Assembly: GCA_030016635.1 (NCBI GenBank)
Contig: JASEJQ010000003.1
Coordinates: forward strand, 8,520-72,519
Source: Thermoanaerobacteraceae bacterium
GTDB taxonomy: Bacteria > Bacillota > Thermoanaerobacteria > Thermoanaerobacterales > UBA4877
Reading direction: 5' to 3'
DNA: 64,000 bases
The position numbers and the translations under genes were made by a program. Every line of letters starts with the position of its first letter. Position 1 is the stretch's first letter. This document shows, piece by piece, positions 4,852 through 52,211 of this stretch. The notes beneath the pieces are model-generated. The model saw nothing but the letters and a program-made list of their open reading frames with translations, had not been told where the DNA came from and did no database searches.

Positions 4852-5640
4852 TCATTTCTTTTCCTGCCTTATCATTTCCTTTACAATAAAGGCTGCCACG
4901 TCCTCTGCAAAGCTGCCAGACCCAAAACCTGCATCATAACCCAATTCTCTGGCAAGCTGGTGGGTTATGCGAGGGCCACCGCATACGAGGATAAAGTTGT
5001 CGCGTACCCACTGTGCCTCCATAAGTTCTACCATATTTTTAAGGTTTGATATGTGTACGTCTTTCTGGGTGACCACCTGGGATATCAGGATTGCATCTGC
5101 CTTAAGTTCTATGGCCTTAGCCAATAGCTCCTCATTCATGACCTGGCTGCCTAAGTTGTAAGCATCTATCATCTGATACCTTTCAAGGCCGTAGTGTCCT
5201 GCGTAGCCTTTCATATTCATTATGGCGTCTATGCCAACCGTGTGGGCATCTGTACCTGTACAGGCGCCGACAACAACAATCTTCCTCCCTATTTTTTCTC
5301 TTATTAAGGCATCTATCTCATCCATGGTCATTTCTTCTTTTTCTACCTCTTCCACATGGATGGATGTATAGTCCACGGTATGAGTTGTAGAGGCATAGGC
5401 TACAAAAAATGTATATCCAACGCCGAGGTCCTTTGAGCAGGTGATGTTTATGTCTTCAAAGCCCATACTGGATAGAAGCTCTCTGGCTGCCTCCAAAGCT
5501 TTAGCATCGCATGGAATCGGCAGTGTGAAAGAGAGCTGCATCTTTCCATCATTCATTGTGTCTCCGTATGGTTTTACCTTAGTAAGGTCCAAAGTCCTGT
5601 CGTATTCTTTCTTTCCCAGCGAATAAAGTCCCGAGCTCAT
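4852..5640 (-). CDS. kamE: Lysine 5,6-aminomutase beta subunit (B12-binding)
   Basis: 262 aa with the cobalamin-binding motif DAHTVG inside a Rossmann-like C-terminal half. Overlaps kamD by 4 nt. Confidence 0.9.
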   Translation of the reverse strand: MSSGLYSLGKKEYDRTLDLTKVKPYGDTMNDGKMQLSFTLPIPCDAKALEAARELLSSMGFEDINITCSKDLGVGYTFFVAYASTTHTVDYTSIHVEEVEKEEMTMDEIDALIREKIGRKIVVVGACTGTDAHTVGIDAIMNMKGYAGHYGLERYQMIDAYNLGSQVMNEELLAKAIELKADAILISQVVTQKDVHISNLKNMVELMEAQWVRDNFILVCGGPRITHQLARELGYDAGFGSGSFAEDVAAFIVKEMIRQEKK

Positions 5641-7193
5641 TCGTTTTCACCTCCCAGCATGAGAGGTATGAATGGGTTTATATACTTTTCATCCTTTACG
5701 AATACACCGTCCAAACCTTTACCACCGGTAAACGACCTCTTTACGTCGGCGAATATGCCATCCTCCAGGGATTTAAAGAGTCCCTTTGTCTCCATTTCTT
5801 TTAGCAGGGCCGCTGACTTGTTCAATACCTCTTTTGCCCTTGTCTCTATAATGCCGCCATTCTTAAACTCTATATCATCTCCAAGGTGCTTCATGTTATT
5901 GAATATATATTTTGCATTTTCAATGGACAGATACCTATCCTGAAGGAAGGGAGTGTGTATGGCCTCGGTGAGCATGCCAAGAAGCTGTATGCCCTGATGA
6001 GTCATGATGGCTGCTATATTAAACATGGCGTCCTGTATATGCCCCTTAAATATATTCCCCGTCATGTATTTGGTGGGTGGCATATACTTTATGGGGGCTT
6101 TAGGAAATATCTGTCTTATCATCTGAGCCTGCGCTACCTCATACAGAAACCCGTCGGTGAGGTCAGGATCCATCTCAAAGGCATGACCAAGGCCCATCTG
6201 CTCTGGTGGTATGCCTGCTGCTAAGGCAAACTGTTCGTTTATAAAGTCCGAGGCCAATACAGTATGGGCTGCTTCCACAGCGTCTGCTGTGGTGAGGTAG
6301 TTGTCCTCCCCTGTGTTTATGATAATTCCTGAAAAACCGTTTATCACCCTGGAGAAGAACTGGTCTACCAGCGTCCTCTGCATGTTTATATCCCTGAAGA
6401 GTATGCCGTAGAGGGCATCGTTGAGCATGACATCCAGCCTTTCTAAGGCTCCCATGGCTGCAATCTCCGGCATACAAAGACCTGATGCATAGTTTACCAG
6501 CCTTATATATCTGCCGAGCTCTTTTGATACATCGTCTAAGGCACTCCTCATTATCCTGAAATTTTCCTGGGTAGCAAATGTGCCGCCGAACCCTTCTGTG
6601 GTAGCACCGTAAGGGACATAGTCTAAAAGGCTCTGGCCTGTTGAGCGTATTACTGCAATTATGTCAGCCCCCTGGCGTGCTGCAGCCTGGGCCTGAACCA
6701 CATCCTCATATATATTGCCGGTGGCCACTATGACATAGAGGTACGGCTGCTGCCCTTCACCCAGTTCTTTTAACATCCTCTCACGGGTTTGCCTGTTTTC
6801 TTTTATCCTTTGCATGGCCGGCCTGGCCATCTCATTCGCTTTACCGATTATCTCATCATAAGGCGCACGAGGCATTTTAATTATATCCAGTTCGCCACGA
6901 GCTACCTTTTCAGCCACCTCCTGGGGAATAATATTTCTATTAAGGCAGGCATTGGCTACATAATAAGCGGCACCCAGAGGCAGGGCACTATTTCTTTTTA
7001 TTTCGTCCACAAGCACATTAGGAAGTGGCACTCCGTCATGGGTTACTCCATCCACGCCATAAAGTCTCAATATAGTCCTTTCTGTACTCACCGTTGCTCT
7101 TTTGTCCACAAACTCCTGCACATCATCCGCAATCTTCTTTGCCGATTCTCTGCAGGATGCAATAGTATTTTCATCAAGGTTTAAATGTGCCAC
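5637..7193 (-). CDS. kamD: Lysine 5,6-aminomutase alpha subunit
   Basis: 518 aa of the TIM-barrel KamD/OraS-type family, placed next to kamE and in a cluster with kamA and kdd. GTG start with AGGAAG SD. Confidence 0.9.
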   Translation of the reverse strand: MAHLNLDENTIASCRESAKKIADDVQEFVDKRATVSTERTILRLYGVDGVTHDGVPLPNVLVDEIKRNSALPLGAAYYVANACLNRNIIPQEVAEKVARGELDIIKMPRAPYDEIIGKANEMARPAMQRIKENRQTRERMLKELGEGQQPYLYVIVATGNIYEDVVQAQAAARQGADIIAVIRSTGQSLLDYVPYGATTEGFGGTFATQENFRIMRSALDDVSKELGRYIRLVNYASGLCMPEIAAMGALERLDVMLNDALYGILFRDINMQRTLVDQFFSRVINGFSGIIINTGEDNYLTTADAVEAAHTVLASDFINEQFALAAGIPPEQMGLGHAFEMDPDLTDGFLYEVAQAQMIRQIFPKAPIKYMPPTKYMTGNIFKGHIQDAMFNIAAIMTHQGIQLLGMLTEAIHTPFLQDRYLSIENAKYIFNNMKHLGDDIEFKNGGIIETRAKEVLNKSAALLKEMETKGLFKSLEDGIFADVKRSFTGGKGLDGVFVKDEKYINPFIPLMLGGENE

Positions 7194-7232
7194 GTCATCG
7201 CTTCCTTTCGATATAATGTTTTAACCATCTTT

Positions 7233-7576
7233 GATTTTAGTGTACAAAGCAGTATTCCACGAATGATAGCAACATCCATGCACCTGATCGCTTGTCTTGA
7301 TACTCTAATAATTCGTGGCTGCGTTTCGCCGGGTACGCCTCCATTCGGCGTCCTTGCCTCAAACTTAAGCTCATCCGGCGTCCATGCCGGATGCCCCGGC
7401 TGCACTTGTCACGAATTCAAGAGTATCATAGACTCTCTTTAACCGTCCATGCTTATTTTAAGCACAACCAATAATGAAAATAGGATGATGCGTTGTAAAT
7501 CTTACCATGAGTAGTCTATTTTCGTGTTAAGGTTGCATTTGATGCTCACTATCATTCTTCATAAGGGTTTTTACAG
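7233..7576 (+). repeat. Structured intergenic repeat, copy A (MITE-like; long-core variant with an extra 88-nt internal segment)
   Basis: Arms GAATGATAGCAACATCC (7261-) and GATGCTCACTATCATTC (-7557). Core GCCGGGTACGCCTCCATTCGGCGTCC...ATGCCGGATGCCCCGGC at 7328-7400. Bracketed by a perfect 13-nt direct repeat TTTAACCATCTTT (7220-7232 and 7577-7589). Confidence 0.85.
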
Positions 7577-7577
7577 T

Positions 7578-9158
7578 TTAACCATCTTTTGTTCCATCAG
7601 ATACCCGTTCAGTCAAGCCAGCCTGTATCTGACGAGCCCTTTCTATAATTGAAAAATCTATGCCCATAAGATATGCTATATTGATGGCATCCTGGGGCAC
7701 ATCACTATACCCTACATTCTCTAAACTATAGTCCATATATTGGCGTATTTTTTTTAGCCTGTCTTCCAAACTTAATTTTTCAATCTCTTCCAGGGACATA
7801 TCCTTTAAACCCCTAACCCGATAGTGCCCTATCCCTTCCACGTTCACTCCCTCATAGTGTGTAGTAATGAGTGTTACAGTGTCCATGTCTTTGAGATACT
7901 CTATAATACTTAATAAAAGGGCCCTTCCCTCCGGCGGGTTTGTACCCTGGGTCAGCTCATCTAAGAGGAGAAGTCCCCTATCCTTTTTGAGGTATGGGCT
8001 TAAACCGGCCATGGCATTTCCAAAGCTGGATAGTCCGTTTTCCGGGCTGTCACCTTCTCTGCTCAGATAGATATAGCTAAAGATAGGTACCTCAGCGTGT
8101 GCGGCGGGTACATAGAGGCCATATGAAGCCATCTTAGCTATAAGACCCACCATTTTCAATGTTACCGATTTGCCTCCCATATTAGCCCCGGTAAGTACTG
8201 TAACCCCTTTTTCGAGGGTAATGCTCACCGGCTGATACTTCATGCAGCGTTCTTCTAAAAAGCTCTTAATGTATGGGTGAAAGCCGTCCTTTATATGGAC
8301 AAACATATTGTCTGTTATCTCCGGCGGATTAAGCCCAAGCTTCACAGCCAAATTTGCCCTGGCCAGCAATAGGTCTATATGAGAAGCCGCTTTGAGGCTG
8401 TGCTGTATTTCATCCATGTGTTTCAATACCTCGTCGGTGAGGTGCTCCCTGACCTTAAGCTCTTCCTCCTCTTCCATGTTTTTGAGAACTATAAGTTCTT
8501 TTTCAGTCTTGATGTATTCATCCGACGGGTTAGCACTGATAGTAGCCCTGGTGAGTCCTTCTTTTAATAAATAAAAGCCATTGGGAATTGGTTCTCCTTT
8601 TCCGATATATGCCCTTCCGTCTGGAGATATTTCTAAACCTGTTGACTCTTTGAGCTCTTCAATTCGGTCTGCCATAATCCTATCCATGGTCTTTTTGAGT
8701 CTATCCATCTCTTTTCTTATCTCTTTAAGACGGCTGGAGTAGGAGCTGTATATAAAAAATGATGATGCCTCGCCCTCAATGTTTAAAAGGTTATATACCT
8801 CAGGGACGGGTTTTACAATATATTCCTCGGGGAGTTCTATATCCCTTATGGTGTTATATATCTTCTCAAATGTAAAAAGGTCATTCTTAAGCTCAAATAA
8901 CTCAACCTCTTTAAGCGGAAGACCCTTTTGTGCCCTGTCCAGAGAGCCGGTGATATCCTTTAACGACGAAAGATAATATGCCAGTTCCCTCCTCCATCTG
9001 TCGTCCCGGGAGAGCAACAGTCCTGTAAGCGAAAGGCATTGGCGCACATCATCCTCCTGGCCTGGCTCAAAGGGTGCCATGGCTCTTTTAAGCCTGTGCC
9101 CCCCAGGTGTGAGTACCTCTAAATTATCCATAATATACTCAAAGCCCAGTTCGTCCAT
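7578..9158 (-). CDS. MutS-domain-V-like ATPase embedded in the lysine aminomutase operon (no mismatch-binding domain evident)
   Basis: Walker A GANMGGKSVTLK and Walker B LLLLDELTQGTNPPEG match the MutS family ABC-ATPase domain. Start moved to MDELGFEY (ATG 9156-9158), 2 nt after the upstream stop. Confidence 0.8.
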   Translation of the reverse strand: MDELGFEYIMDNLEVLTPGGHRLKRAMAPFEPGQEDDVRQCLSLTGLLLSRDDRWRRELAYYLSSLKDITGSLDRAQKGLPLKEVELFELKNDLFTFEKIYNTIRDIELPEEYIVKPVPEVYNLLNIEGEASSFFIYSSYSSRLKEIRKEMDRLKKTMDRIMADRIEELKESTGLEISPDGRAYIGKGEPIPNGFYLLKEGLTRATISANPSDEYIKTEKELIVLKNMEEEEELKVREHLTDEVLKHMDEIQHSLKAASHIDLLLARANLAVKLGLNPPEITDNMFVHIKDGFHPYIKSFLEERCMKYQPVSITLEKGVTVLTGANMGGKSVTLKMVGLIAKMASYGLYVPAAHAEVPIFSYIYLSREGDSPENGLSSFGNAMAGLSPYLKKDRGLLLLDELTQGTNPPEGRALLLSIIEYLKDMDTVTLITTHYEGVNVEGIGHYRVRGLKDMSLEEIEKLSLEDRLKKIRQYMDYSLENVGYSDVPQDAINIAYLMGIDFSIIERARQIQAGLTERVSDGTKDG

Positions 9159-9160
9159 TT

Positions 9161-9925
9161 CTATACCTCCACAAGCGGCAACCCGGTAAAAATAAACCTG
9201 TCGGACACCACAACAAGGATGGGTGCCTTTCTGATACAGGCCAGGCCCACCTTCCCGTGTACTTCGAGCCATTCATCTCTTTCCAGGACAAAAGATGAGG
9301 GGTATTCTCCTATTACGGTTATATCGTTACGCCTGCTTAAAATATCCATTATAAGACCGAAGGTAATAGCTCCTTTAATAAAGACCGCCTCTGTATCCTC
9401 TTTTATCATGGCAGCTATGTCTCTACCCCTGCCCAGAGGTAAAAATTCAATAGGGGTTATTTCCTCTCCTATTATAGCTGATTTATCGTTATTTACGCCA
9501 ATCTCCGGTAAATTTAGTCTGGAGTAAAGATAATCATATTCTTCTTGATCTCTTACCGTAAGTGCTATCCCATCGCATACTTCAGGCGAGGTTGAGGCCA
9601 GGATATCAGAGACTATGATTGACCTCTCTGCACCAAGTTCAGGCATGGAAAGTGCCATTTCTCTGCATAATTTGAGCGAGGTTGGCCCTGATACGGTTGA
9701 TGGTGCATCAGTCCTTTTCTTTAATATATAGATGTCTGCCACCTTTTTTATAATTTCCTCTCTTCCCACATCGAAAAAAGAGGCAGTATAGAGGCTACCC
9801 TCCGGTATTGGAATAATCCTTCTGCCAGTCGCCGTAAAGGCGTCCCCCAGTATACCTGCAGCCTCACTCAATCCCCCTATAGCGGTTAATATCTTTACTC
9901 CCTGCAAAACCTCAGTCCTCAACAT
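9161..9925 (-). CDS. Hypothetical protein, partner of the MutS-like ATPase in the kam operon
   Basis: 254 aa from MLRTEVLQGVKIL (GGAGAAAGAAGGAGAA upstream). Overlaps the kamA 3' end by 14 nt. I recognise no motif. Confidence 0.6.
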   Translation of the reverse strand: MLRTEVLQGVKILTAIGGLSEAAGILGDAFTATGRRIIPIPEGSLYTASFFDVGREEIIKKVADIYILKKRTDAPSTVSGPTSLKLCREMALSMPELGAERSIIVSDILASTSPEVCDGIALTVRDQEEYDYLYSRLNLPEIGVNNDKSAIIGEEITPIEFLPLGRGRDIAAMIKEDTEAVFIKGAITFGLIMDILSRRNDITVIGEYPSSFVLERDEWLEVHGKVGLACIRKAPILVVVSDRFIFTGLPLVEV

Positions 9926-11171
9926 TTCTCCTTCTTTCTCTCCTGGGAAGCTCGTTTGGCTCGAGGCATACCTTATCACTGCCCTTACGAAGAAGCTCTG
10001 CCACACCGTCCGTGGCCTTTTCTTTCTGGCAGTCCTCACAGTTGCAATGGCTCACTTTATCCTCGGGCTCTATATATGTGGAAATGACACCCTCATAGTT
10101 TCTCAAGACGACCTTTGAATCGGACATTGATATGAGATACTGTGGCATTACGGGAATCTTACCCCCACCTCCTGGTGCATCTATCACATAGGTAGGTACA
10201 CAGTATCCAGATGTGTGGCCCCGGAGTCCCTCAATAATCTCAATGCCCTTTGCCACTGAGGTCCTGAAATGGCTTATACCCATAGAGAGGTCGCACTGGT
10301 ATAGATAGTATGGCCTCACTCTCATCTTAACCAGCTCATGTACAAGTCTGGTCTGTATATGGACGCAGTCGTTTACTCCCTTTAGAAGGACTGACTGATT
10401 ACCCAGAGGAATACCTGCATCTGCCAGCATAGCACATGCCCTCTTTGAATCCTCTGTAATCTCCTTATAATGGTTAAAGTGGGTATTCAACCATATAGGA
10501 TGATATTTCTTGAGCATATTAACCAGAGATGGGGTTATCCTCTGAGGGCACACCACTGGTGTCCTGCTTCCTATCCTTATTATCTCCACATGGTCTATCT
10601 CTCTTAGTTTTGCTATGATATATTCTAACCTATCGTCGGAAACCAAGAGGGCATCTCCACCGGAAAGCAGCACGTCCCTCACCTGGGGCGTCTCTCTTAT
10701 ATATTCTATGCATTTATCTATCCTGTCCATTGGCATGGCCTCATCGGTCTGCCCTGCAAACCTTCTTCTGGTGCAGTGGCGGCAGTACATGGAGCACTGG
10801 TCCGTAATGAGGAAAAGAACTCTATCCGGATATCTGTGTGTAAGTCCCGGGACAGGTGAGTCAACATCCTCATTTAATGGGTCTTCCATGTCTCCATGGC
10901 CCTTTACCAGTTCTAACGCTGTAGGCACGGCTTGCTTGCGTATTGGGTCGGCGGGATCATCAGGATCTATAAGGGTAGCATAGTATGGTGTTATGGCCAT
11001 ACGCAGAGTCTTTAAAGTATCTTTTATCCCTTCTTCTTCCTCTGGTGTCAGGTTTACCACATGTTTGAGCTCGTCTAAAGTGGTTATACGGTTTCTAACC
11101 TGCCAGTGCCAGTCGTTCCACTCTTCCTCTGTGACATCCTTCCACAGGTCTATATCCATGTATGAACGCAT
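9912..11171 (-). CDS. kamA: Lysine 2,3-aminomutase (radical SAM)
   Basis: 419 aa with the radical-SAM cluster motif CSMYCRHCTRR and the KamA-family C-terminal region. Confidence 0.95.
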   Translation of the reverse strand: MRSYMDIDLWKDVTEEEWNDWHWQVRNRITTLDELKHVVNLTPEEEEGIKDTLKTLRMAITPYYATLIDPDDPADPIRKQAVPTALELVKGHGDMEDPLNEDVDSPVPGLTHRYPDRVLFLITDQCSMYCRHCTRRRFAGQTDEAMPMDRIDKCIEYIRETPQVRDVLLSGGDALLVSDDRLEYIIAKLREIDHVEIIRIGSRTPVVCPQRITPSLVNMLKKYHPIWLNTHFNHYKEITEDSKRACAMLADAGIPLGNQSVLLKGVNDCVHIQTRLVHELVKMRVRPYYLYQCDLSMGISHFRTSVAKGIEIIEGLRGHTSGYCVPTYVIDAPGGGGKIPVMPQYLISMSDSKVVLRNYEGVISTYIEPEDKVSHCNCEDCQKEKATDGVAELLRKGSDKVCLEPNELPRRERRRNVED

Positions 11172-11226
11172 GAAATTACCTCCCTCTATAAATTAATAAT
11201 GAGATTTGTATTTAACTTATTGAGTA

Positions 11227-11257
11227 TGGCATATAACATCCAAAGGCATCCTTAAAG
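11227..11257 (-). repeat. Solo arm fragment of the repeat family, overlapping the kdd stop codon
   Basis: TGGCATATAACATCCAAAGGCATCCTTAAAG matches the arm of copies E and F (E: GGCATATAACATACAAAGGCAGCCTTAAAG). No core is present. Confidence 0.7.
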
Positions 11258-12283
11258 ATAGAGCTCTTCAAAAATCTTCCTAAGTGTCTCGCTCTCTCTT
11301 AATGTCTGAAGAGCAATCTCTGCATGTCCCTTTGTATAGCCGTTACCTATTATCATGTTTACGTCCTTGCCTACGCCCTCTGCGCCCAGAGCTGCCTTTG
11401 TAAAGCTGGTGGCCATGCTGAAGAAGTATATAAGGCCGTCATCTTTTGTGGCAAGTATGGAGGACATCTCTGTATCTGGCACATTTACACAGTTGATTGT
11501 GATATCAGCCAGACGCCCACCTGTGACCTTTTCCACCATTTTTAGAACCTCGGCTGGTTTTGTCGCATCGCCTTGCAGGACAATATCAGCAAATCCGGCG
11601 TCCTTAAGTCTCTTTAAGCTTTTATCGGAGTGGGCCATGGCTATGACCTTGCCGGTAATGCCTGCTCTTTTTTTGGCCTCGTAACAGACCAAAAGGCCGG
11701 ACTTTCCGCCTGCACCTATCACAAATACTGTGTCCCCAGGTTTTACAAGCTTAGCAGTCTGGGCTGGAGCCCCAGCCACGTCTAAGACAGCTAAGGCAAG
11801 GGTTTCTGGTATATCGTCAGGCAGTTTGGCGTATATGCCGCTCTCAAAGAGAATGGCCTGGCCTTCTATTTCTACCCTGTCCACTTCTTTAACTATCCTC
11901 TTTATTTTATGTATCTTTAGTGGTGTAAGGGATAACGATACCAGAGTGGCAATCTTATCTCCCATCTTAAGGTCTCTATCTACCAGGTCTGGCCCAATCT
12001 TATTCACCCTTCCCAGCAGCATTCCGCCAGAACCGGTGACAGGGTTTTGCATCTTGCCTCTTTCGGAAACTATATCCATTATCCTTTTTGCTATCTTATC
12101 CTCATCTCCCCCGCACTCCTCCTCTATCTGGGTGAAGCTGGCAGAGTCTATGTTTAGATAGTCCACATCAATGAGTATCTCGTTGTCATAGATATCCATG
12201 GTATTGTCTATCTTGAGTGCTGGCTGCGGCAGAGCCCCCTTTGGTTCTATTACCCTGTGCGTGCCGTATTTGTTTCCTTTCAT
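11252..12283 (-). CDS. kdd: L-erythro-3,5-diaminohexanoate dehydrogenase
   Basis: 343 aa with Rossmann motif VIGAGGKSG. First gene of the kam cluster, immediately upstream of kamA. Confidence 0.85.
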   Translation of the reverse strand: MKGNKYGTHRVIEPKGALPQPALKIDNTMDIYDNEILIDVDYLNIDSASFTQIEEECGGDEDKIAKRIMDIVSERGKMQNPVTGSGGMLLGRVNKIGPDLVDRDLKMGDKIATLVSLSLTPLKIHKIKRIVKEVDRVEIEGQAILFESGIYAKLPDDIPETLALAVLDVAGAPAQTAKLVKPGDTVFVIGAGGKSGLLVCYEAKKRAGITGKVIAMAHSDKSLKRLKDAGFADIVLQGDATKPAEVLKMVEKVTGGRLADITINCVNVPDTEMSSILATKDDGLIYFFSMATSFTKAALGAEGVGKDVNMIIGNGYTKGHAEIALQTLRESETLRKIFEELYL

Positions 12284-12375
12284 GTTGTAAGACCTCCTTA
12301 TATTGATTTTTTGTTATAACATTTTCAACATGACATATAACATCTATTTTTATATCTCAAGCCGAATTTATATAA

Positions 12376-12390
12376 GCAAGAATCATGCCA
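12376..12390 (-). promoter_or_regulatory. Sigma-54 (-24/-12) promoter of the kdd-kamA operon
   Basis: The minus strand reads TGGCAT-GATTC-TTGC(TT), matching the TGGCAY-N5-TTGCW consensus. It lies about 95 nt upstream of the kdd ATG and directly downstream of an EBP gene. Confidence 0.85.
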
Positions 12391-12416
12391 GACGTAAAAA
12401 GCCTATATTACAGGCA

Positions 12417-12453
12417 TAAAAAAATAGATGCTGCCCAAAAATAGGCAGTATCT
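12417..12453 (-). terminator. Hairpin plus U-tract at the EBP stop codon (terminator and/or EBP binding palindrome)
   Basis: Minus strand AGATACTGCC-tattttt-GGGCAGCATCT followed by ATTTTTTTAT. A second small hairpin GCCTG-taatat-AGGC plus TTTTT follows at 12401-12415. Confidence 0.65.
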
Positions 12454-13789
12454 ATTTCATACTGTATTTCTTTATTTTATTTTGAAGCGTCTGACGTGGT
12501 ATTTTAAGGAGCCGGGCCGCTCTGGATATATTGCCTCCGGCTGTATCAAGGGCTTCTCTTATTATCCGTTTTTCCTCTGATGCCAGCCTCTCATCAAGGG
12601 AAGCCAGGCCACTATCCTCATTTACCTTGAAGTATGGCGGCAGGTCTGAAATGGTGATATAATCACCGTTCATAAGGTTCATGCTGCCTTCTATCACATG
12701 CATTAGCTCCCGTACATTGCCAGGCCATGAATAGGTCAGAAAGAAGTCCTCCACTTCCGGGGCCAGGCCCTTGACATTTGTCCCCCAGCTTCTGTTAAGC
12801 TTATCTATATAAAATCTGGCAATGTAGAGTATATCCTCGCGCCTCTCCCTTAAAGGAGGTATATACAAAGTTACTGTATTCAACCTGTAGAAAAGGTCCC
12901 GCCTCATACGTCCCTCTTTCAGGACTGACTCAGGATTCTCATTCATGGATGCCATAATCCTGACATCAGTTCTTGTGAGCTTCACACTGCCCACACGCCT
13001 CACAGCGCCATCCTGCAGCACCCTCAGGAGTTTTACCTGTAGCTCTAACGGCATGGCATTTATCTCATCTAAGAGCAGCGTACCACCATCGGCCACCTCA
13101 AAAAGGCCAGGCCGGTCGTCCGCTCCTGTAAAGCTTCCTTTCACCGTGCCAAAAAGTATGCTCTCCAAAAGATTTGAAGGCAGGGCAGCACAGTTTTGAG
13201 CAATGAATGGCCCATTCTTCCTTGGCGACAGGTTGTGGATAGCCTGGATAAACATCTCCTTGCCTGTACCTGTCTCCCCATAAACCAGCACGCTGGAACT
13301 GGTCTTTGCTATCTTTACCGCTTTCTCCTTGACATCGTTTATCTCTCTGCTTACACCTATTATGTCATCGAGGGTGAACTCTGCGCCCTCTACAGTCCTT
13401 CCCCTGCCCTTGTGATACAGCCTGGCCTCCAACTCCAGTATCCTTTCAGAAAGATTTTTTATACGAGTGATATCCTGAGATACCTCTACCGCTCCTCCCG
13501 TGCTCAAAAGAGGATAACTGGAATTTACTGTAGTAATCTTTCTCCCCTTATAATTGATAAAGGACTGCTGTATATTTAAGACAGGCTGACCGGTCTTTAA
13601 TACCTGCAAGAGGGTGCTCTCATTCTCTTTTAGAGATGGATATACCTCCAAAAGGTGCTTACCCAGTACCTCCTCCCTGTCAAGCCCCTCCATATCTATT
13701 AACACCTGATTTATATATATAATCCTTCCATCCCTGTCTATTATCTGGACACCCTCATCCAGGTTGTCCAGGACCTCTCCCAGATCCAT
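12452..13789 (-). CDS. Sigma-54-dependent transcriptional activator (PAS - AAA+ - Fis-type HTH)
   Basis: Walker A GETGTGKE, GSFTGA (GAFTGA-loop variant), ESILFG, C-terminal HTH GGNISRAARLLKIPRQTLQNKIKKY. Confidence 0.9.
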   Translation of the reverse strand: MDLGEVLDNLDEGVQIIDRDGRIIYINQVLIDMEGLDREEVLGKHLLEVYPSLKENESTLLQVLKTGQPVLNIQQSFINYKGRKITTVNSSYPLLSTGGAVEVSQDITRIKNLSERILELEARLYHKGRGRTVEGAEFTLDDIIGVSREINDVKEKAVKIAKTSSSVLVYGETGTGKEMFIQAIHNLSPRKNGPFIAQNCAALPSNLLESILFGTVKGSFTGADDRPGLFEVADGGTLLLDEINAMPLELQVKLLRVLQDGAVRRVGSVKLTRTDVRIMASMNENPESVLKEGRMRRDLFYRLNTVTLYIPPLRERREDILYIARFYIDKLNRSWGTNVKGLAPEVEDFFLTYSWPGNVRELMHVIEGSMNLMNGDYITISDLPPYFKVNEDSGLASLDERLASEEKRIIREALDTAGGNISRAARLLKIPRQTLQNKIKKYSMK

Positions 13790-13847
13790 AATATCACCTG
13801 CTCAATTTTAGGCACTTAAGCCCGTTTTTGGGCTATTTGAGTCAGTT

Positions 13848-16189: not shown

Positions 16190-16384
16190 ATGTTATCACC
16201 TCTATATTATTCGCTTTATATGCAGAATGAAAGCCTGAATGGCGCAAGAAACCTGCCATCATGCTGTACCTTTTGCGGGTATATGGCCAGGCCGTCATCT
16301 TCAGGTATGACATGCAGGGATTGTTCAGCTAATTATAATTATAAAAAAGCAGGGCCTATGACCCCACTTAAGATTATACTGTAA
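16190..16384 (+). CDS. Possible small Cys-rich protein (64 aa), unverified
   Basis: GGAGG lies 9 nt upstream of the ATG and a TATAAT-like box sits about 35 nt upstream. Contains CCxxC...CxxC. The ORF overlaps the arcC 3' end and its probable terminator, so it may be spurious. Confidence 0.25.
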   Translation: MLSPLYYSLYMQNESLNGARNLPSCCTFCGYMARPSSSGMTCRDCSANYNYKKAGPMTPLKIIL

Positions 16385-17318
16385 TTACAGTACCTGTCTT
16401 TCCTTCCATTGCTTCTTCTGCCTTCTCCAGAGAGGTTATTATAGCTTTGCGGTATGACCTGGATTTTGCAAATATCACAGCAGCCTGAACCTTCGGCAGC
16501 ATAGATCCAGGGGTAAATTGTCCCTCATTTATGTATTTCTCAGCTTCTTCAACACTCATATGGTCCAGGTCTTTTTGATTAGGTCTTTTGTAATTTATTG
16601 ACACCTTCTCCACAGCGGTCAGTATCAATAAAATATCTGCATCTATAAGTTCAGCCAGTTTTTCTGATGCCAGGTCTTTATCAATAACCGCTGCCACACC
16701 CTTAAGGCCGTCCTCATCCTCTATGACAGGCACTCCACCACCGCCACATGATATAACCACATGGCCGGCTTTTGTAAGAGTCCTTATTATATCATCTTCT
16801 ACTATCTTTTTGGGCATCGGCGATGGTACAACTCTCCTGTAACCCCTGCCCGCATCCTCTTTCATTATGTATCCATTTTCCTTAGCCAATTTCTCTGCAT
16901 CTTCCTTAGTAAAGAAAGACCCAATAGGCTTAGTTGGATTTAAAAATGCTGGATCTTCCTTATCCACAACTACCTGAGTGATGACTGTAGCAATAGATTT
17001 GTTAAGACCGCTTTTCCTCATCTCATCACCTATGGCCTGCTGGAGATGGTAGCCTATATATCCCTGGCTCATACTCCCACATTCAGGAAGCGGCATAACA
17101 GGATTGCCTGTTACCTTTGATGCAGTCTCATAGGTAGCTATTATCTGACCCACCTGCGGTCCGTTTCCGTGGGACACAATAACCTGATGCCCTTCTCTTA
17201 TAAGCCTTACAATAGCTCTGGCAGTAAGTCTGCTGGAGTCAAGCTGTCCCTCTGCCGATATATCCTTTGGGTCTGCCTGGAGGGCATTGCCCCCCAGTGC
17301 AACAACTATTCTCGCCAT
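16374..17318 (-). CDS. arcC: Carbamate kinase
   Basis: 314 aa starting MARIVVALGGNAL. Amino-acid kinase family, adjacent to arcB and arcA. Confidence 0.95.
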   Translation of the reverse strand: MARIVVALGGNALQADPKDISAEGQLDSSRLTARAIVRLIREGHQVIVSHGNGPQVGQIIATYETASKVTGNPVMPLPECGSMSQGYIGYHLQQAIGDEMRKSGLNKSIATVITQVVVDKEDPAFLNPTKPIGSFFTKEDAEKLAKENGYIMKEDAGRGYRRVVPSPMPKKIVEDDIIRTLTKAGHVVISCGGGGVPVIEDEDGLKGVAAVIDKDLASEKLAELIDADILLILTAVEKVSINYKRPNQKDLDHMSVEEAEKYINEGQFTPGSMLPKVQAAVIFAKSRSYRKAIITSLEKAEEAMEGKTGTVITV

Positions 17319-17336
17319 AATTTTCCCCCTTATCCT

Positions 17337-18311
17337 CTATGCCAATGTCGCAACCATAACAGCTTTTATTGTATGCATTCTATTCTCAGCCTGGTCGAAT
17401 ACTTTTGAATATTTGCTTTCAAATACCTCGTCAGTAACCTCCATAGCACCATAGTTCTTTGACATATCAGTATCATAATTGTGTATGGCAGGCAGGCAGT
17501 GCAGGAAAATTACGTCCTCTTTGCCAGTAGCCCTTATTAAATCCATATTTACCTGATATGGCTTTAACTGTTCTATCCTCTCCTGCAGTTTACTTTCTTC
17601 ACCCATGGATGCCCATACGTCGGTATATATGACATCAGAATCTTTAACCGCAGCCTTTGGGTCCTCTATAAGCTCTATAACAGCTCCTGTATTATTCGCT
17701 ATCTCCTTAGCTTTCTCCACCACAGAGTTCTCCGGCCATAGGGCCTTTGGCGCCCCAGCTACAAAATGCATGCCCATTACAGCGCAACCCAACATAAGAG
17801 AATTCCCCATGTTATTCCTAGCATCACCCATATATGTAAGTTTTATTCCTTTCAAATGGCCAAAATGCTCTTTTATTGTTAGAAAGTCAGCTAAAATCTG
17901 TGTTGGGTGTGAATAGTCAGTAAGCCCATTCCATACAGGTACACCGGCATATTTCGCCAGTGTTTCCACTGTTTCCTGCTTAAAACCCCTGAACTCTATA
18001 CCATCAAACATCCTTCCCAGCACCCGTGCAGTATCGGCTACTGTCTCTTTCTTGCCAAGCTGTATGTCGTCTTTGCCGAGATACTCTGGATGAGCTCCCT
18101 CATCTATGCAGGCTACTACAAAGGCACACCTTGTCCTGGTTGATGGCTTTTCAAATAAAAGAGCTATATTCTTTCCTTCTAATAGATTGCCCTTTATACC
18201 AGCCTTTTTTTTGGCTTTTAAAGTTGCAGACAGGTCTAAAAGATATTCCATTTCCTCCTTTGTAAGCTGTTCAACTGTTAAAAGTGATTTACCTCTCATG
18301 TTTACAGGCAT
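17337..18311 (-). CDS. arcB: Ornithine carbamoyltransferase (catabolic context)
   Basis: Motifs STRTR, HPTQ and HCLP; 324 aa. Confidence 0.95.
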
Positions 18312-18350
18312 TTAAATTCCTCCTTTAAAATTTTTATTTTAGCTTTAATG

Positions 18351-19568
18351 TTACCATGAAACAGACTCCCTTAGCAAAGGCATGCTCATACATCTTGGGC
18401 CTCCACGTCCCCTGGAAAGCTCTGAACTTGGTATAGTAATTACTTTTATGCCATTTTCTCTCAAGGCCCGGTTAGTTATATAATTCCTATCGTAGGTAAC
18501 AACCACGCCGGGGGCAATTGCCAGGGTGTTTGACCCATCATTCCACTGTTCTCTGCCCGAAGCTATTTTGTCACCATCTCCGCATTTTATAAGCTGAACC
18601 GATGATAGTCCCAACGATTCTTTCAATATATCATTTAGTGGCATTGCCTTATGCTCTATGTTTATATCATCCCCTGCACCCTTGGAAATTTCATATATGC
18701 TCAAAGGACCTTCTACTCCAGGATGAATGGTAAACTTATCATAATCAACCATTGTAAATACAGTATCCAGATGCATAAATGCTCTTGATTTTGGTATCTC
18801 AAACACAAGCACCTTTTCAAACGCTGATGCTTTAAATAGATTGCGCGCTGTTATCTCTATAGCCTGAGGCGTTGTCCTCTCGCTGCACCCAATTGCCACT
18901 ATCTTATCATTAAGTACCAGCTCATCTCCTCCCTCAATGCTAAATGGAATTGATCTATCATACCATATTTCCGGTTTATCCTTTTTAAACATAGGATGGT
19001 ATTCATATATATACTCTATAAAAAGGCTTTCTCTTCTCCTTGCTGCTGTAGCCATCCTGTTTATTGTAAGCCCCTTGCCTATGCATGCAGCTGGATCTCT
19101 CGTAAAATATAGATTCGGCATAGGATCTATATAGAAGGGATAATCATCTTCAATAATCCCTGCCAGTGTATAGTACCTCTTTACCTCAATCTCATCTTTT
19201 CTTACGCCCGACATGAACTTTAAAACCATATCTTTAGGACTCATACTTAAAAAAAACTCTTTTAAAGACTCTTTCAGTCCTTCCGAAGTCACGCCGCTTT
19301 CTTCAAAAAATTGGTCTAAAAATTTTTGAACTACATCAGTTTCATTAAGTATATCTGAAAACAGGTCCTCTATATATAATACCTCTGCTCCATTTTCCTT
19401 AAGTACAGAGGCAAATACATCATGCTCTCTCTGGGCAATTTCGAGGTATGGTATATCATCGAAAAGCAATTTGACAAGGTATTCCGGTATAAGGTTCTCC
19501 AACTCGCCATTTGGCCTATGCAAGAGCACCTTTTTAAGTTTTCCTATCTCCGAATTGATCTCTATCAT
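18351..19568 (-). CDS. arcA: Arginine deiminase
   Basis: Start moved to [19 protein letters not shown] (GGAGGG 6 nt upstream). The catalytic Cys lies in the C-terminal [10 protein letters not shown]. Confidence 0.95.
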
Positions 19569-19746
19569 TCTATCCCTCCTCATATACCCTACAATGGGCA
19601 TTATACATCAGATGCATATTGCAGACAACAGTTATTTAATCTATTAAAAAATAAATATAACCGTATAACGCCTATTATAGTCAATTTGCGTCAATTTTGA
19701 TAAATAATTTATTCTAAAGCTTTAAACATTACTTTTTCTTTCAAAT

Positions 19747-34038: not shown

Positions 34039-34121
34039 TTGTCCCCCATTCCCTCCTTTTTATTTTTAAAGATAATATTATTCTACATTAAAACCCCTGT
34101 ATACACAACAGTTAAATTTAA

Positions 34122-38523: not shown

Positions 38524-40170
38524 TCATTCCCAGTAGGCATATCTGAAGAATTTAAACTCCAGCGGTGTGGCGATGTAACCCTTCAGGCCTGGCCTTACCA
38601 CCAGGTTTTCCGTATAAAAGTATATGGGTCCTACAGGAAACTCCTTCATGAGGAGTTCATCAGCCTTATGCATAGCCTCCATTCTCATTTTCTGGTCAGA
38701 CTGCGTCCTTGCAATATTTATATACTCATCATATCCTTTGTTGCTCCAGTGCGGGTTATTATTGGCATTATCTGAAGACAGCAGTTCAAGCATACCCAGT
38801 GGGTCAATATAGTCAGCTATATACCCGTCCCTGGCTATGTCATAATTCCCCTGCCTTCTGGTATCCAAAAATACATTCCATTCCTCCTGTTTTAGCTCAA
38901 TATCTATGCCAAGATTTTGCTTCCACATCTGCTGAATTGCTTCACCTATCTGCTTGTGTGTCTCGCTGGTATTAAAGGTATAGGTAAGTTTTGGGAATCC
39001 CTTCCCGTCGGGATAACCGGCTTCTTTCAGTAATTCTTTGGCTTTCTCTACGTTTGCCTTAGTTGGGTCATAAAAATCCCCACCCACTTTCCTGAAATCC
39101 TGAGAAGAATCAGCATCAGGAAGACCATATGGTACAAAAGCACCGGCGGGAATCTGGCCACCCTTAGTAATATTTTCCACTATTGCTTTTCTGTCAATGG
39201 CTAAGGTCAAAGCCTCCCTTACCCTCGGGTCATCCAGTGGCTTTTTGCTCACATTGTAGCTTAAATAATAAGTCCCTATTGTAGGTACTGTTATTAAATA
39301 GCCTTCTTCTTTCAGCCTTGCAAGTTCCTGAGCTGGTGGGTTGTCTATAAAGTCCACCTGGCCTGACTCAAAAGCAGAAAGAGATGTATTCTCATCAACA
39401 ATTTCAGTAAAAATTAATTTGTTCAGCTTAACATTTTGAGCATCCCAGTAGTTAGGGTTTTTTACAAATTCAATAGTATCATTGTGCACCCATTTTACCA
39501 TCTGGAAGGGGCCATTGCCTATATATGTCTCTGGGTGCATAGCCCATCCCTCCGGATCTTTCTCAACCATGTCCTGCCTCACCGGTACCAGTTCATGCCT
39601 GGAAAATATCTGAAGTATATATGCGGTTGGTGCCTTTAAGGTTACCTCCAATGTCTTATCGTCAACTGCCTTTATACCCACATCCTCCCAATTTGCCTTG
39701 CCGTTATAGTATTCTTCTGCATTTTTTACATAAAACAGATTATAGGCGTAGTGTGCACCTACATTAGGGTCCAATGTCCTCTTCCATGAATATACAAAAT
39801 CATCTGCAGTCACAGGCTTGCCGTCATACCAGTTTGCGTTTTCCCTTATATGGAATGTCCAAACAAGTCCATCCTGAGATACGTCCCATTTCTCTGCAAT
39901 GGCGGGCTCAATAACATTCTTCTCATCATGCCTCACCAATGCCTCAAAGTTGTTGTATATTACCTGATCTCCCGGTATCTCACTACAGAATGCCGGGTCT
40001 ACACTCTGAGGTTCAGCCCCTAAATTATAAATGAGTGTATCTTTATCCTTCGGAGTCTCCTGGGCCTCCTGAGGTTTTTCTTCCTGCGCTGTCTGCTGAT
40101 TTGCAGAACATCCTGTTATAAGGGTAAAAGCAAGAATCGCTGTTAATAAAAATATTAATATCCTCCTCAT
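38524..40170 (-). CDS. Peptide ABC transporter substrate-binding lipoprotein (OppA/DppA-like), paralog 3
   Basis: 548 aa, lipobox ITGCS. Collinear with paralogs 1 and 2 (KAKELLKEAGYPDGKGFP). Confidence 0.9.
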   Translation of the reverse strand: MRRILIFLLTAILAFTLITGCSANQQTAQEEKPQEAQETPKDKDTLIYNLGAEPQSVDPAFCSEIPGDQVIYNNFEALVRHDEKNVIEPAIAEKWDVSQDGLVWTFHIRENANWYDGKPVTADDFVYSWKRTLDPNVGAHYAYNLFYVKNAEEYYNGKANWEDVGIKAVDDKTLEVTLKAPTAYILQIFSRHELVPVRQDMVEKDPEGWAMHPETYIGNGPFQMVKWVHNDTIEFVKNPNYWDAQNVKLNKLIFTEIVDENTSLSAFESGQVDFIDNPPAQELARLKEEGYLITVPTIGTYYLSYNVSKKPLDDPRVREALTLAIDRKAIVENITKGGQIPAGAFVPYGLPDADSSQDFRKVGGDFYDPTKANVEKAKELLKEAGYPDGKGFPKLTYTFNTSETHKQIGEAIQQMWKQNLGIDIELKQEEWNVFLDTRRQGNYDIARDGYIADYIDPLGMLELLSSDNANNNPHWSNKGYDEYINIARTQSDQKMRMEAMHKADELLMKEFPVGPIYFYTENLVVRPGLKGYIATPLEFKFFRYAYWE

Positions 40171-40195
40171 TAAATTTCCCCTCCCTAATATTATT

Positions 40196-40453
40196 AATTA
40201 CACTGAAAGAAGTCTATATTGGCATGCCAACGGCATCCATGTGCCTGATCGTTTGTCCTGATACTCTAATATTTGCCGCTGCATTTCGCAGGGTACGCCT
40301 CCATTCGGCGTCCATGCCTCAGGTCGGCTCATCCGATATCCATGCCGGATGTCCCTGCTCCATTTGTTGCAAATCCAAGAGTATCATGGACTCTCTTTAA
40401 GGCCACATTTGATGCTGTATGTCATGCTCAAATTGGGTTTTTACACCCAAACC
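40196..40453 (+). repeat. Structured intergenic repeat, copy C (long core), between iadA and OppA-like paralog 3
   Basis: Arms GGCATGCCAACGGCATCCATGTGCC / GGCCACATTTGATGCTGTATGTCATGCTC. The core at 40288-40358 has closing helix GCAGGG...CCCTGC. Confidence 0.8.
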
Positions 40454-40454
40454 A

Positions 40455-41615
40455 TTATTCAAATGTTCCCTTAATAATGGCCTGGCCTTTATCCACCATT
40501 AACCTACCTTTTGCAAACACCATTTCAATACCCATATTCTCATCCATAACTACAATATCCGCATCACTTCCTACTGCTATATATCCTTTTTGCGGATAGT
40601 TCTTGAGTCTTTTGGCCACATTGGATGTAACAACACTGGCAGCCTTATCTATACCTATTTCCCTTGCAAGGTCTTTAAATTCCTCATAGAGTGTATGGGG
40701 GTCTGCCACCAGAAGCCCTTTTATCTCTCCTTTCTCATTGAATAGCGGCATACTCCCGTTACCATCAGAACTCATTGTAATGTTTTCCAGAGGCACCCCG
40801 CCTTCTATACACATCCTTATTGCCTCCGATGGTTTTATTGATTTATCCACGTCTGCCTTTGGGGAAACTCCCGAGGTAATATCTATATATCCACCCATTC
40901 TCCCCCACCTGATGCCATCCTCTAAGAGTTCCCTCCGCCTATTTATATGGGTGGGCACAAACTGGGTAATGGGTATCTCTGTACTCTCAACTATTTCAAA
41001 TAGCATGGAGAGCATACCATTACCGTTCCCAACGTGCAAATGCACTACACCGGCCTTTCCTGAAAGCATACCACCCACCCTTGCCTCCGCTGCTACTCTC
41101 TTTAGTTCATCAATAGTTGGTTGAGATGAGCGATGATCTGATATAGCTATCTCACCGGCACCAATCACCTTATCAATAAGTATTATGTCATTTCTTATAC
41201 TCCCGGTAATCGTACATGTAGGCAACTGATAGCACCCTGAATAAATATAGGTGGATATGCCCTCTGCCTCCAATCCCCTTGCCCTGGCAAGGAGACTTTC
41301 CACATGCCTTGTGGTACCATCTGTACCTAAAAGTCCTGCTACAGTGGTGATGCCTGAGGTAGTAAGTTTAGATAGCATTACCTCTGGTGTCCTGGATGTA
41401 TAGCCAGCTTCCCCGCCTCCCCCTATTATATGTACATGCTGGTCTATGAACCCCGGAAGGGCTAACTTCCCGTTCAAAACATACTCTTCTATTGCCAGCC
41501 CTGAAATGTTTATATCTTTTTCAACCATGGCAATTCTATCCCCGGCAATGAGTATGTCTTTTATACCCATGTCTTCTGGAGCAAAAACGTGAGCATTTTT
41601 TAGCAATTTAAACAT
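40455..41615 (-). CDS. iadA: Beta-aspartyl (isoaspartyl) dipeptidase
   Basis: 386-aa amidohydrolase-fold protein with metal motif GFIDQHVHIIGGGGE. Confidence 0.85.
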   Translation of the reverse strand: MFKLLKNAHVFAPEDMGIKDILIAGDRIAMVEKDINISGLAIEEYVLNGKLALPGFIDQHVHIIGGGGEAGYTSRTPEVMLSKLTTSGITTVAGLLGTDGTTRHVESLLARARGLEAEGISTYIYSGCYQLPTCTITGSIRNDIILIDKVIGAGEIAISDHRSSQPTIDELKRVAAEARVGGMLSGKAGVVHLHVGNGNGMLSMLFEIVESTEIPITQFVPTHINRRRELLEDGIRWGRMGGYIDITSGVSPKADVDKSIKPSEAIRMCIEGGVPLENITMSSDGNGSMPLFNEKGEIKGLLVADPHTLYEEFKDLAREIGIDKAASVVTSNVAKRLKNYPQKGYIAVGSDADIVVMDENMGIEMVFAKGRLMVDKGQAIIKGTFE

Positions 41616-41698
41616 CTTATGCAGCTCCTTCTAAGCCAAAACTTTAATCAATGGTTATGTTCCCTCCTTTCTATAAAACTTTTGCCATTATAATATAA

Positions 41699-41713
41699 GC
41701 AAATTTCATGCCA
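41699..41713 (-). promoter_or_regulatory. Sigma-54 (-24/-12) promoter upstream of iadA
   Basis: The minus strand reads TGGCAT-GAAAT-TTGC(TT), about 85 nt upstream of the iadA ATG. Confidence 0.8.
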
Positions 41714-41736: not shown

Positions 41737-41779
41737 ACTTTAATGGGGTGAAATTCAATCCATTTCACCCCATTAAAGT
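41737..41779. promoter_or_regulatory. Perfect 18-bp inverted repeat overlapping the EBP stop codon (candidate enhancer site and/or terminator)
   Basis: ACTTTAATGGGGTGAAAT-tcaatcc-ATTTCACCCCATTAAAGT. No U-tract follows on the minus strand. Centred about 70 nt upstream of the predicted sigma-54 start site. Confidence 0.5.
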
Positions 41780-49256: not shown

Positions 49257-49352
49257 GGCAGAGTAGGCATCACGCGTCAAGTGTCAGGAGATGGGAAGTG
49301 GCTCCTGAACGAAAGGTTTCGCCCTGCGGTGTTGATGCCGCATTCCGCTGCC
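49257..49352 (+). promoter_or_regulatory. THF (tetrahydrofolate) riboswitch aptamer
   Basis: GGCAGAGUAGGCAUCACGCGUCAAGUGU...AUGGGAAGU...AACGAAAG...GCGGUGUUGAUGCCGCAUUCCGCUGCC aligns block by block with the known folT-motif aptamer (GAGUAG / GCGUNAAGUGU / AUGGGA / ACGAA / GCGGUG / GCAUCCGCU). It sits upstream of an ECF folate S-component and is preceded by TGgTATAAT (49239-49247). Confidence 0.9.
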
Positions 49353-49360: not shown

Positions 49361-49422
49361 GACACCTTTCTCTTTAGTGTGGCAACGTCAGATTGCCTGT
49401 AACTAAAGAGAAAGGAGGTGTC
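49361..49422 (+). promoter_or_regulatory. Riboswitch expression platform: SD-sequestering helix
   Basis: GACACCTTTCTCTTTAGT (49361-49378) is complementary to ACTAAAGAGAAAGGAGGTGTC (49402-49422), which contains the folT SD. The alternative pairing is CCACATTAAAG / CTTTAGTGTGG. Confidence 0.7.
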
Positions 49423-49425
49423 AGT

Positions 49426-49959
49426 ATGAATCAGCATGCACTATCTGCAAAAAGCATTGCCTATGCAGGGTTATTCATAGCCTTGAGTATTGTCCTTACA
49501 AGGACCATGAGCTTTATGATAACTGTAGGTGGTATACAGGGCGTTAGGATAGGTTTGGGCGGAATGCCTATCATTCTCTCAGGCATTGTCTTAGGGCCTG
49601 GCCTGGGTGCTTTAGTAGGTGCAGCATCTGATGTCATAGGGTATATACTCTTCCCAAATGGCCCATACTTCCCTGGTTTCACGCTTACAGCAGCCCTCTC
49701 AGGTGCATTGCCAGCGATACTTCTCAGGTTTATAGACAGAAAGAGGTCTTTCCCTCTTATAAAAATTCTCATTGTCATAGCAATATCAGACATTATTACA
49801 TCCATCTTTTTAGATACCTACTGGCTGGTCATCATGTATCACAAGGCCATTGCGGTACTTCTCCCACCAAGGATAACTGCACGGGTGATCATGATACCTG
49901 TCAACTCTTACCTGATATATTCGTTGCTCAGATATGTACCAGGACTGAAAACGAGATAA
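49426..49959 (+). CDS. folT: ECF transporter S component, folate family
   Basis: Start at MNQHALSAKSIAYAGLFIALSIVL (GGAGG 7 nt upstream). Six TM segments and THF riboswitch context. Confidence 0.85.
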   Translation: MNQHALSAKSIAYAGLFIALSIVLTRTMSFMITVGGIQGVRIGLGGMPIILSGIVLGPGLGALVGAASDVIGYILFPNGPYFPGFTLTAALSGALPAILLRFIDRKRSFPLIKILIVIAISDIITSIFLDTYWLVIMYHKAIAVLLPPRITARVIMIPVNSYLIYSLLRYVPGLKTR

Positions 49960-49999
49960 ATTAAAGGACTGCCAATGACTTCAGGCAGTCCTTTAATTT
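49958..49999. terminator. Bidirectional terminator between convergent folT and the EBP gene
   Basis: AAATTAAAGGACTGCC-aatgacttca-GGCAGTCCTTTAATTT, a 16-bp stem. Confidence 0.8.
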
Positions 50000-52199: not shown

Positions 52200-52211
52200 A
52201 GGAGTCTGCAT

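Follow-up and report, generated by a model that had tools for sequence, protein, structure and literature searches.

For bacteria in guts, sediments and digesters, the fermentation of lysine is among the principal routes by which protein is turned into butyrate and ammonia. The enzymes of the pathway are known; of its regulation in anaerobes, to our knowledge, essentially nothing has been described. A 64,000-nucleotide stretch of contig JASEJQ010000003.1 from a Thermoanaerobacteraceae bacterium (GCA_030016635.1; hereafter, the window) carries a lysine-fermentation operon behind a putative sigma-54 promoter, together with three further sites of the same kind and three genes for enhancer-binding proteins (EBPs). 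It raises the question of whether these sites are promoters and, if so, whether they serve one pathway or several. Our analysis argues for four separate sigma-54-dependent transcription units, each probably serving its own operon. Sigma-54 control of the lysine-fermentation (kam) operon, as predicted from sequence, is well supported, because promoter, EBP and upstream palindrome are conserved across many genomes.

The consensus TGGCAY-N5-TTGCW had exactly four matches in the window, all on the minus strand and, as the original prediction had held, at sensible distances from start codons, with predicted leaders of about 81, 72, 21 and 16 nt for sites 1 to 4. The chance level was taken from 100 dinucleotide-preserving shuffles of the window, which gave a mean of 0.32 expected matches, none of the shuffles reaching four. 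All four sites are intergenic and co-oriented with the next gene, and in each of them the GG and GC doublets are exactly 10 bp apart. Promoter 1 (TGGCATGATTCTTGCT, 12375-12390 (-), with GG at 12389-12388 and GC at 12377-12376) lies upstream of kdd-kamA-(kamB slot)-kamC-kamD-kamE, promoter 2 (TGGCATGAAATTTGCT, 41698-41713 (-)) upstream of iadA and an SBP_bac_5 gene, promoter 3 (TGGCACGCTTTTTGCT, 56756-56771 (-)) upstream of CoA-transferase-thiolase-maoC-gntP, and promoter 4 (TGGCATGATTTTTGCT, 61238-61253 (-)) upstream of bcd-etfB-etfA. Pfam and NCBIfam bore out the gene identities proposed earlier for the four downstream regions (kdd-kamA, iadA, the CoA-transferase operon and bcd-etfBA). With up to two mismatches allowed, the window held 36 matches against 33 expected, which is no enrichment; only the exact set therefore stands out, and we claim no further promoters. 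The motif was also conserved at orthologous positions in relatives, whose loci are designated here by L numbers, namely, at 41 of the 80 kdd loci and 8 CoA-transferase loci as well as in L164-170 and L171. These comparative data support all four predicted promoters, and the sites are very probably functional as sigma-54 promoters.

The three EBP genes were found as predicted. EBP1 (12452-13789 (-), 445 aa) is a KamR-like protein with the Pfam architecture PAS-AAA+(GSFTGA)-HTH_8; EBP2 (41773-43740 (-), 655 aa) consists of an unassigned N-terminal region, PAS_8, AAA+(GAFTGA) and a winged-helix-like C-terminus; and EBP3 (49993-52062 (-), 689 aa) reads CBS-PAS-PAS-AAA+(GAFTGA)-HTH_8. An N-terminal sensory and a C-terminal DNA-binding domain were present in each, as was a Sigma54_activat domain (PF00158, E 1e-62 to 1e-72), and the catalytic motifs were intact in all three: GETGTGKE/GESGTGKE (Walker A), GSFTGA/GAFTGA, LLLDEI/IFLDEI (Walker B) and R(R/E)DL(F/Y)YR (arginine finger). 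The C-terminus of EBP2 gave weak CggR_N/HTH_12 matches and no helix-turn-helix (HTH) of the Fis type; the EBP2 family is widespread, and PF21715 is usually present in it. The best-scoring NCBIfam model for EBP1, EBP2 and EBP3 was PrdR (386, 375 and 544 bits, respectively), but since these scores are far below the PrdR cut-off of 795, we do not regard any of them as PrdR. The earlier statement that each of the three genes adjoins a promoter did not hold for EBP3, which is located 4.7 kb from promoter 3, as a separate unit past the terminator that follows gntP.

It could be argued that the motifs are chance or vestigial matches, that sigma-70 promoters transcribe the operons, and that the EBPs act elsewhere or are relics. 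The motif of promoter 3 does overlap a terminator-like hairpin and a T-tract, and no rpoN is seen in the window. An RpoN-box scan of 2.39 Mb, comprising the window and the relatives' loci, detected rpoN only in L042; we infer its presence in this genome, as we do the transcription starts, the operon extents and the inducing ligands. However, shuffling never produced four matches, every site is intergenic with the right orientation and spacing and is kept at the same position in relatives while the flanks diverge, and each catalytic and sigma-54-contact motif is retained in all three EBPs. We consider an origin by chance or decay very improbable.

Promoter 1 precedes the upper-pathway operon of lysine fermentation (4852-12283 (-), Pfam and NCBIfam), which comprises kdd (11252-12283 (-); NF052381, 282 bits, cut-off 200), kamA (9912-11171 (-)), kamC (7578-9272 (-); NF052383, 479 bits, cut-off 300), kamD (5637-7193 (-)) and kamE (4852-5640 (-)), with kamA, kamD and kamE identified by Pfam/NCBIfam. 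The window thus holds kamA, kamD/kamE and kdd of the gene set for the anaerobic pathway, which was reportedly set out by Kreimeyer et al. in 2007. The slot of kamB, encoding a reactivase subunit, is occupied by a shorter, divergent open reading frame (ORF) (9161-10039 (-), ending at 9161, at most 292 aa) with only a 26-bit KamB match, and KamB of L001, the closest kdd locus, had no tblastn match in the window. KamC is intact, and no terminator was found in the kamC-kamD gap. In L001 and L007 too, the six genes from kdd to kamE form a complete unit, and the operon ends at kamE.

The arrangement at promoter 1 was compared across the 80 kdd loci (1.28 Mb), which were obtained by a Kdd scan with one genome per species; the window's own species is outside this set, as the best Kdd match is 77% identical. 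Where the exact motif occurred, it was nearly always a single coding-strand match, which stood 50-100 nt upstream of kdd or, in rearranged operons, at the head, and the strand bias was strong, with 41 coding-strand against 4 opposite-strand matches in the 1.28 Mb. Motif-bearing loci include those of Caloramator, Thermobrachium, Fervidicella, Sedimentibacter, Dethiosulfatibacter, Tissierellia and Halanaerobiales. Next to the kam promoter, about 30 kdd loci have an orthologue of EBP1 (47-53% identity), while in Spirochaetia and in one Halobacteroidaceae locus an EBP3-like activator takes the place of the EBP1 type. The kdd loci of Peptostreptococcaceae, Filifactoraceae, several Clostridium species and Syntrophomonadaceae had neither promoter nor EBP. 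The earlier proposal of sigma-54 control for the lysine operon is borne out by this comparison, promoter, EBP and palindrome all being conserved across many kdd loci.

The palindrome in question, TGCC-N8-GGCA (with at most one mismatch, typically TGCCnAAAATTnGGCA), was found upstream of the promoter in 22 of 31 EBP1-type regions, where its background of 0.41 per kb leads one to expect about 9% of regions. In the window, its core TGCCTATTTTTGGGCA (12432-12447 (-)), a putative EBP1 binding site, lies 57 nt upstream of the -24 element, inside the larger palindrome AAATAGATnCTGCC-N8-GGCAGnATCTATTT (12422-12457 (-)). A second EBP1-type site, TGCCTAAAATTGAGCA (13799-13814 (-)), which has one core mismatch and an AAAATT spacer resembling the consensus, is located 10 nt before the EBP1 start codon. 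Because it covers the gene's own ribosome-binding region, TGCCTAAAATTGAGCA possibly mediates autoregulation of EBP1. No TGCC-N8-GGCA was detected at sites 2 to 4, and within the window the signal occurs only around EBP1 and kdd; the only other exact core, at 54801, was rejected as an EBP1 site, lying as it does in the thiolase gene with an atypical spacer and fitting chance expectation.

Two relatives of this operon deserve separate mention. In L042 (about 5700-7140), from a Halobacteroidaceae metagenome-assembled genome, rpoN (RpoN box ARRTVAKYR) stands directly upstream of the EBP3-like activator and kdd-kamC-kamDE, and the promoter is of the variant TTGGTATGAAAGTTGCAT; GATACA-N4-TGTATC palindromes were also seen near the rpoN, EBP3-like and kam genes of this locus. 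In L001, a Clostridiales-2 small RNA motif (RF02937, 77 bits) was detected at 8205-8286, just 5' of the EBP1 orthologue.

Unit 2 (38524-41615 (-), Pfam/NCBIfam) consists of iadA, encoding a beta-aspartyl peptidase (40455-41615 (-); TIGR01975, 539 bits, cut-off 331), and a gene for a peptide-type solute-binding protein (SBP_bac_5, 38524-40170 (-), Pfam). Its candidate EBP2 binding site is a perfect 18-nt palindrome, AATGGGG..CCCCATT (41737-41779 (-)), that overlaps the EBP2 stop codon and would form a hairpin of -28.8 kcal/mol with no T-run after it. In the syntenic contigs L164-166, where EBP2 is 72% identical, the 18-mer TTGGCATGAAATTTGCTT is identical and the palindrome, iadA and the binding protein are kept. 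In Thermovenabulum and others, where the EBP2-like gene is more distant (45% identity), a sigma-54 motif variant, a transporter and an amidohydrolase come after it, an amidohydrolase adjoining the EBP2-like gene in L164-170, and AATGGG/CCCATT half-sites were present in the upstream regions of L164 and L169.

Some further features were noted in passing. In the syntenic relatives, an extra sigma-54 motif, GTGGCACGAAATTTGCTT (L164, 17602), precedes an SBP_bac_5 gene after sipL, and no such motif was found in the equivalent gap of the window (34039-34121). Upstream of the gene at 49393-49959, which encodes the S component of an ECF transporter, presumably one for folate, is a THF riboswitch (49257-49352 (+), 78.5 bits) that is conserved in L164. 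The TwoAYGGAY RNA motif (RF01731, gathering score 43) is present twice: the copies, about 84% identical to each other, occupy the gaps between kamC and kamD (7285-7442 (-), 56.9 bits) and between iadA and the solute-binding protein gene (40246-40400 (-), 54.5 bits), each inside a sigma-54 operon. In seven related loci, L001, L007 and the syntenic L164 among them, neither copy was detected, and both look like sporadically inserted structured elements.

Unit 3 is the CoA-transferase operon (52212-56724 (-), Pfam/NCBIfam), with genes for a FadX-like fused CoA-transferase (55183-56724 (-)), a thiolase (53965-55143 (-)), a MaoC hydratase (53526-53948 (-)) and a GntP-family permease (gntP, 52212-53507 (-)), the last followed by a terminator-like hairpin (52168-52199). 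Upstream of its promoter is a cluster of three TGT-N9-GTACA sites of the TGT-N11-ACA class (56823-56892 (-)), at -68, -102 and -121 from the -24 element. It is the sole such cluster in the window and a candidate EBP3 enhancer. Among the 80 metagenome loci used for the comparison of orthologous CoA-transferases, a sigma-54 motif stood directly upstream of the gene in L085, L087, L088, L089, L092, L095, L096 and L106. An EBP3-like gene (45-50% identity) adjoined the CoA-transferase in about 25 of the 80, and several loci repeated the order EBP3-like gene, promoter, CoA-transferase(-gntP/thl). The syntenic L164-166 (L164, 1-1000) lack, between htrA and the ECF S-component gene, the block that carries promoter 3, the CoA-transferase operon and EBP3 (49993-56945); relative to these contigs it is an indel, possibly acquired as a cassette.

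Unit 4 (58272-61211 (-)) comprises the acyl-CoA dehydrogenase gene bcd (60063-61211 (-)), etfB (59249-60052 (-)) and etfA (58272-59252 (-)), all assigned by Pfam. Promoter 4 begins 2 nt past the stop codon of a histidine kinase gene. L171, with a Bcd of 86% identity, has histidine kinase, TTGGCACGATTTTTGCTATATAA and bcd-etfBA in the same order, while the flanking intergenic DNA differs, being 195 nt long in L171 against almost none in the window. In more distant Bcd relatives, the gene lies within other operons and no motif was found.

Several observations weigh against reading the four sites as units that each have a promoter and, at sites 1 to 3, an enhancer of its own. The EBP1-type site is at -57 in the window, as against -88 to -125 in most relatives, and it doubles as a terminator-like hairpin 3' of EBP1 (12422-12457, followed by T7; -22.8 kcal/mol, z = -5.6), so that it could be a terminator only. 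A perfect 19-nt inverted repeat (56761-56801 (-), followed by TTTTTGCTTT), terminator-like as RNA (-27.9 kcal/mol, z = -7.9), has the -24 element of promoter 3 within its 3' arm; it may be an operator, or act in termination or insulation, and the orthologous CoA-transferase loci did not show it. Those named organisms that have the closest EBP3 homologues (Crassaminicella and others, 48-54% identity) carry the gene beside feoAB, without a CoA-transferase, so that a shared target does not follow from orthology at about 50% identity, and the case for pairing EBP3 with its operon is made by adjacency and by the metagenome loci. Finally, promoter 4 has no adjacent EBP and no recognizable enhancer site: a single TGT-N10-12-ACA was found near it, at -306 inside the kinase gene, with none within 300 nt, and L171 showed no obvious site of this type.

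The strong folding of the palindromes, by which they may act as terminators, enhancers or both, bears most directly on a further explanation, in which the promoters are real and the palindromes at sites 1 to 3 are only terminators or insulators, the true enhancers being elsewhere, for example, in the EBP coding sequence. Each of the three gives a strong RNA fold (-22.8 to -28.9 kcal/mol, z = -5.6 to -7.9), two of the three are followed by T-runs, and they are 45-57 nt from the -24 element, as against the 100-250 bp typical in Clostridiales (PMC6615313). However, TGCC-N8-GGCA recurs in 22 of the 31 loci, including those in which the EBP gene is divergent and there is nothing to terminate (L009, L011, L014, L032, L036, L056 and L062-066), the AATGGG/CCCATT half-sites recur in distant EBP2-type loci, and the EBP2 palindrome lacks a T-run. 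We regard a role solely in termination or insulation as rather unlikely.

The remaining question is whether the units act together. Units 1, 3 and 4 might form one lysine-to-butyrate regulon that is split over three sigma-54 promoters and answers to the same inducing signal. Butyryl-CoA dehydrogenase with Etf, CoA-transferase and thiolase are established lower steps of lysine fermentation, and bcd-etf, thiolase or CoA-transferase genes are found beside kam genes in L005, L018, L039, L069, L070 and L079. Kdd is linked to crotonyl-CoA by 3-keto-5-aminohexanoate cleavage enzyme (kce) and 3-aminobutyryl-CoA ammonia-lyase (kal), and neither a BKACE-type nor a Kal-type protein was found among the window ORFs of 100 aa or more that were treated as genes; kce and kal may be elsewhere in the genome. 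The MaoC protein was rejected as Kal, since NCBIfam groups it with enoyl-CoA hydratases. Besides the lack of kce and kal in the window, the EBP1-type palindrome is absent at sites 3 and 4, site 3 has its own EBP and a different enhancer class, the kam-adjacent CoA-transferases elsewhere are only 26-30% identical to that of the window, and the CoA-transferase/EBP3 block is missing in L164-166. In addition, saccharolytic clostridia likewise have FadX-like cotX-gntT and bcd-etf operons that depend on sigma-54 (PMC6615313). A single split regulon is, in our judgment, quite unlikely.

The original prediction had gone further in two respects. It saw the lysine pathway as divided over at least three sigma-54 units, which did not stand up in view of the missing kce and kal, the completeness of the kdd-to-kamE unit in L001 and L007, the confinement of the EBP1-type site to site 1 and its surroundings, and the lack of the CoA-transferase/EBP3 block in a syntenic relative; that sites 1 to 3 carry three different upstream motifs, with none found at site 4, speaks instead for four independent units. 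Its view that amino-acid fermentation in this organism is largely a sigma-54 regulon over-reaches, both because it extends beyond one window and because the arginine deiminase operon (16374-19601 (-); arcA, ornithine carbamoyltransferase and carbamate kinase) has no upstream sigma-54 motif.

On the reading of four separate units, sigma-54 RNA polymerase would bind each -24 GG/-12 GC element as a closed complex and would fire only when the cognate AAA+ activator, on a nearby palindromic enhancer, hydrolyses ATP. The pairing of activators and palindromes is again one that we infer. In unit 1, EBP1 would bind TGCC-N8-GGCA and turn on the upper half of the anaerobic fermentation of lysine, kdd-kamA-kamC-kamDE, its PAS domain presumably sensing lysine or a pathway intermediate. 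In unit 2, the winged-helix domain of EBP2 would bind AATGGGG..CCCCATT and activate iadA and the peptide-binding protein gene for the use of isoaspartyl dipeptides, and in unit 3, EBP3 would bind the three TGT-N9-GTACA sites and activate the CoA-transferase-thiolase-MaoC-permease operon. In unit 4, bcd-etfBA would be fired from its conserved sigma-54 promoter. Beyond the window, we lean modestly toward the proposal that a dedicated sigma-54 regulon, made up of a KamR-like PAS-AAA-Fis activator and a TGCC-N8-GGCA enhancer, governs the lysine-fermentation operon in Clostridia, Tissierellia, Halanaerobiales and, with a different EBP, Spirochaetia, and that enhancer palindromes may double here as terminators of the activator genes. 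If so, activator, terminator/enhancer, promoter and operon would form compact, self-insulated blocks that move as units. The conserved set of activator, enhancer motif and promoter would make it possible to test when the pathway is expressed, provide a sequence signature by which the regulon could be recognized in metagenomes, and supply a candidate switch responsive to lysine or beta-lysine.

The nearest known counterpart of unit 1 is found in Bacillus thuringiensis HD73, where, as summarized in PMC4428206 (citing Zhang et al. 2014), kamA is transcribed from a sigma-54 promoter (TTGGCATAACTATTGCT) activated by the adjacent PAS-type EBP KamR, promoter activity being lost in sigL and kamR mutants. 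The likeness, as far as that summary describes the system, consists in a PAS-AAA-HTH activator whose gene directly precedes, in the same direction, a -24/-12 kamA promoter, and EBP1 is likened to KamR by architecture and arrangement. By the same summary, the B. thuringiensis unit is composed of kamA and one small gene, in a sporulation-linked kam locus that is also read by sigma-K, whereas the operon in the window is the fermentative kdd-kamA-kamC-kamDE set of strict anaerobes. A 2025 survey places lysine 2,3-aminomutase among the sigma-54-linked COGs (clusters of orthologous groups) in Bacilli (PMC12316311).

For 57 Clostridiales, a reconstruction of sigma-54 regulons was given by Nie, Dong and Yang (2019; PMC6615313), among them those of cotX-gntT, thl, maoC and bcd-etfAB and of ornithine, proline and leucine catabolism; the text and supplement of that study do not mention lysine or aminomutase. 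We found no description of sigma-54 control of a lysine-fermentation operon in the searchable literature, and the link seems not to have been written up before.

Units 3 and 4, generic modules for butyrate and short-chain acyl-CoA metabolism, belong to already-known types, since sigma-54 control of cotX-gntT, thl, maoC and bcd-etfAB was reported in that reconstruction (PMC6615313). There, the EBPs of the CrbR, XcgR, XcaA and YctR regulons are PAS-containing one-component regulators, and TGT-N10-12-ACA enhancers are given for CrbR, XcgR and related EBPs. These regulons have the same gene content as units 3 and 4 and the same enhancer class as unit 3: multiple TGT-N10-12-ACA sites, as in CrbR/XcgR-type regulons, are present at promoter 3 and not at promoter 4. 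They differ in that here CoA-transferase, thl, maoC and gntP are in one operon, bcd-etfBA stands alone behind a histidine kinase gene, and the EBP3 gene lies downstream of the operon, so that the likeness is one of gene content and enhancer class. The peptide-degradation regulons of XcyR and YpdR (PMC6615313, Table 1) resemble unit 2 in placing peptidase and peptide-transport genes under sigma-54, whereas the targets here are iadA and an SBP_bac_5 protein, and EBP2 has a winged-helix-like C-terminus instead of a Fis-type HTH. With the Stickland and amino-acid control of the OrdR, PrdR and LeuR type (PMC6615313), units 1 to 3 share the scheme of a dedicated, usually adjacent EBP and a sigma-54 promoter for each operon, but with lysine, isoaspartyl peptides and acyl-CoA as the targets. 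Unit 1 is new for a fermentative operon, within a known regulatory theme, and it refines, rather than overturns, the picture of amino-acid and butyrate catabolism under sigma-54 in Clostridia.

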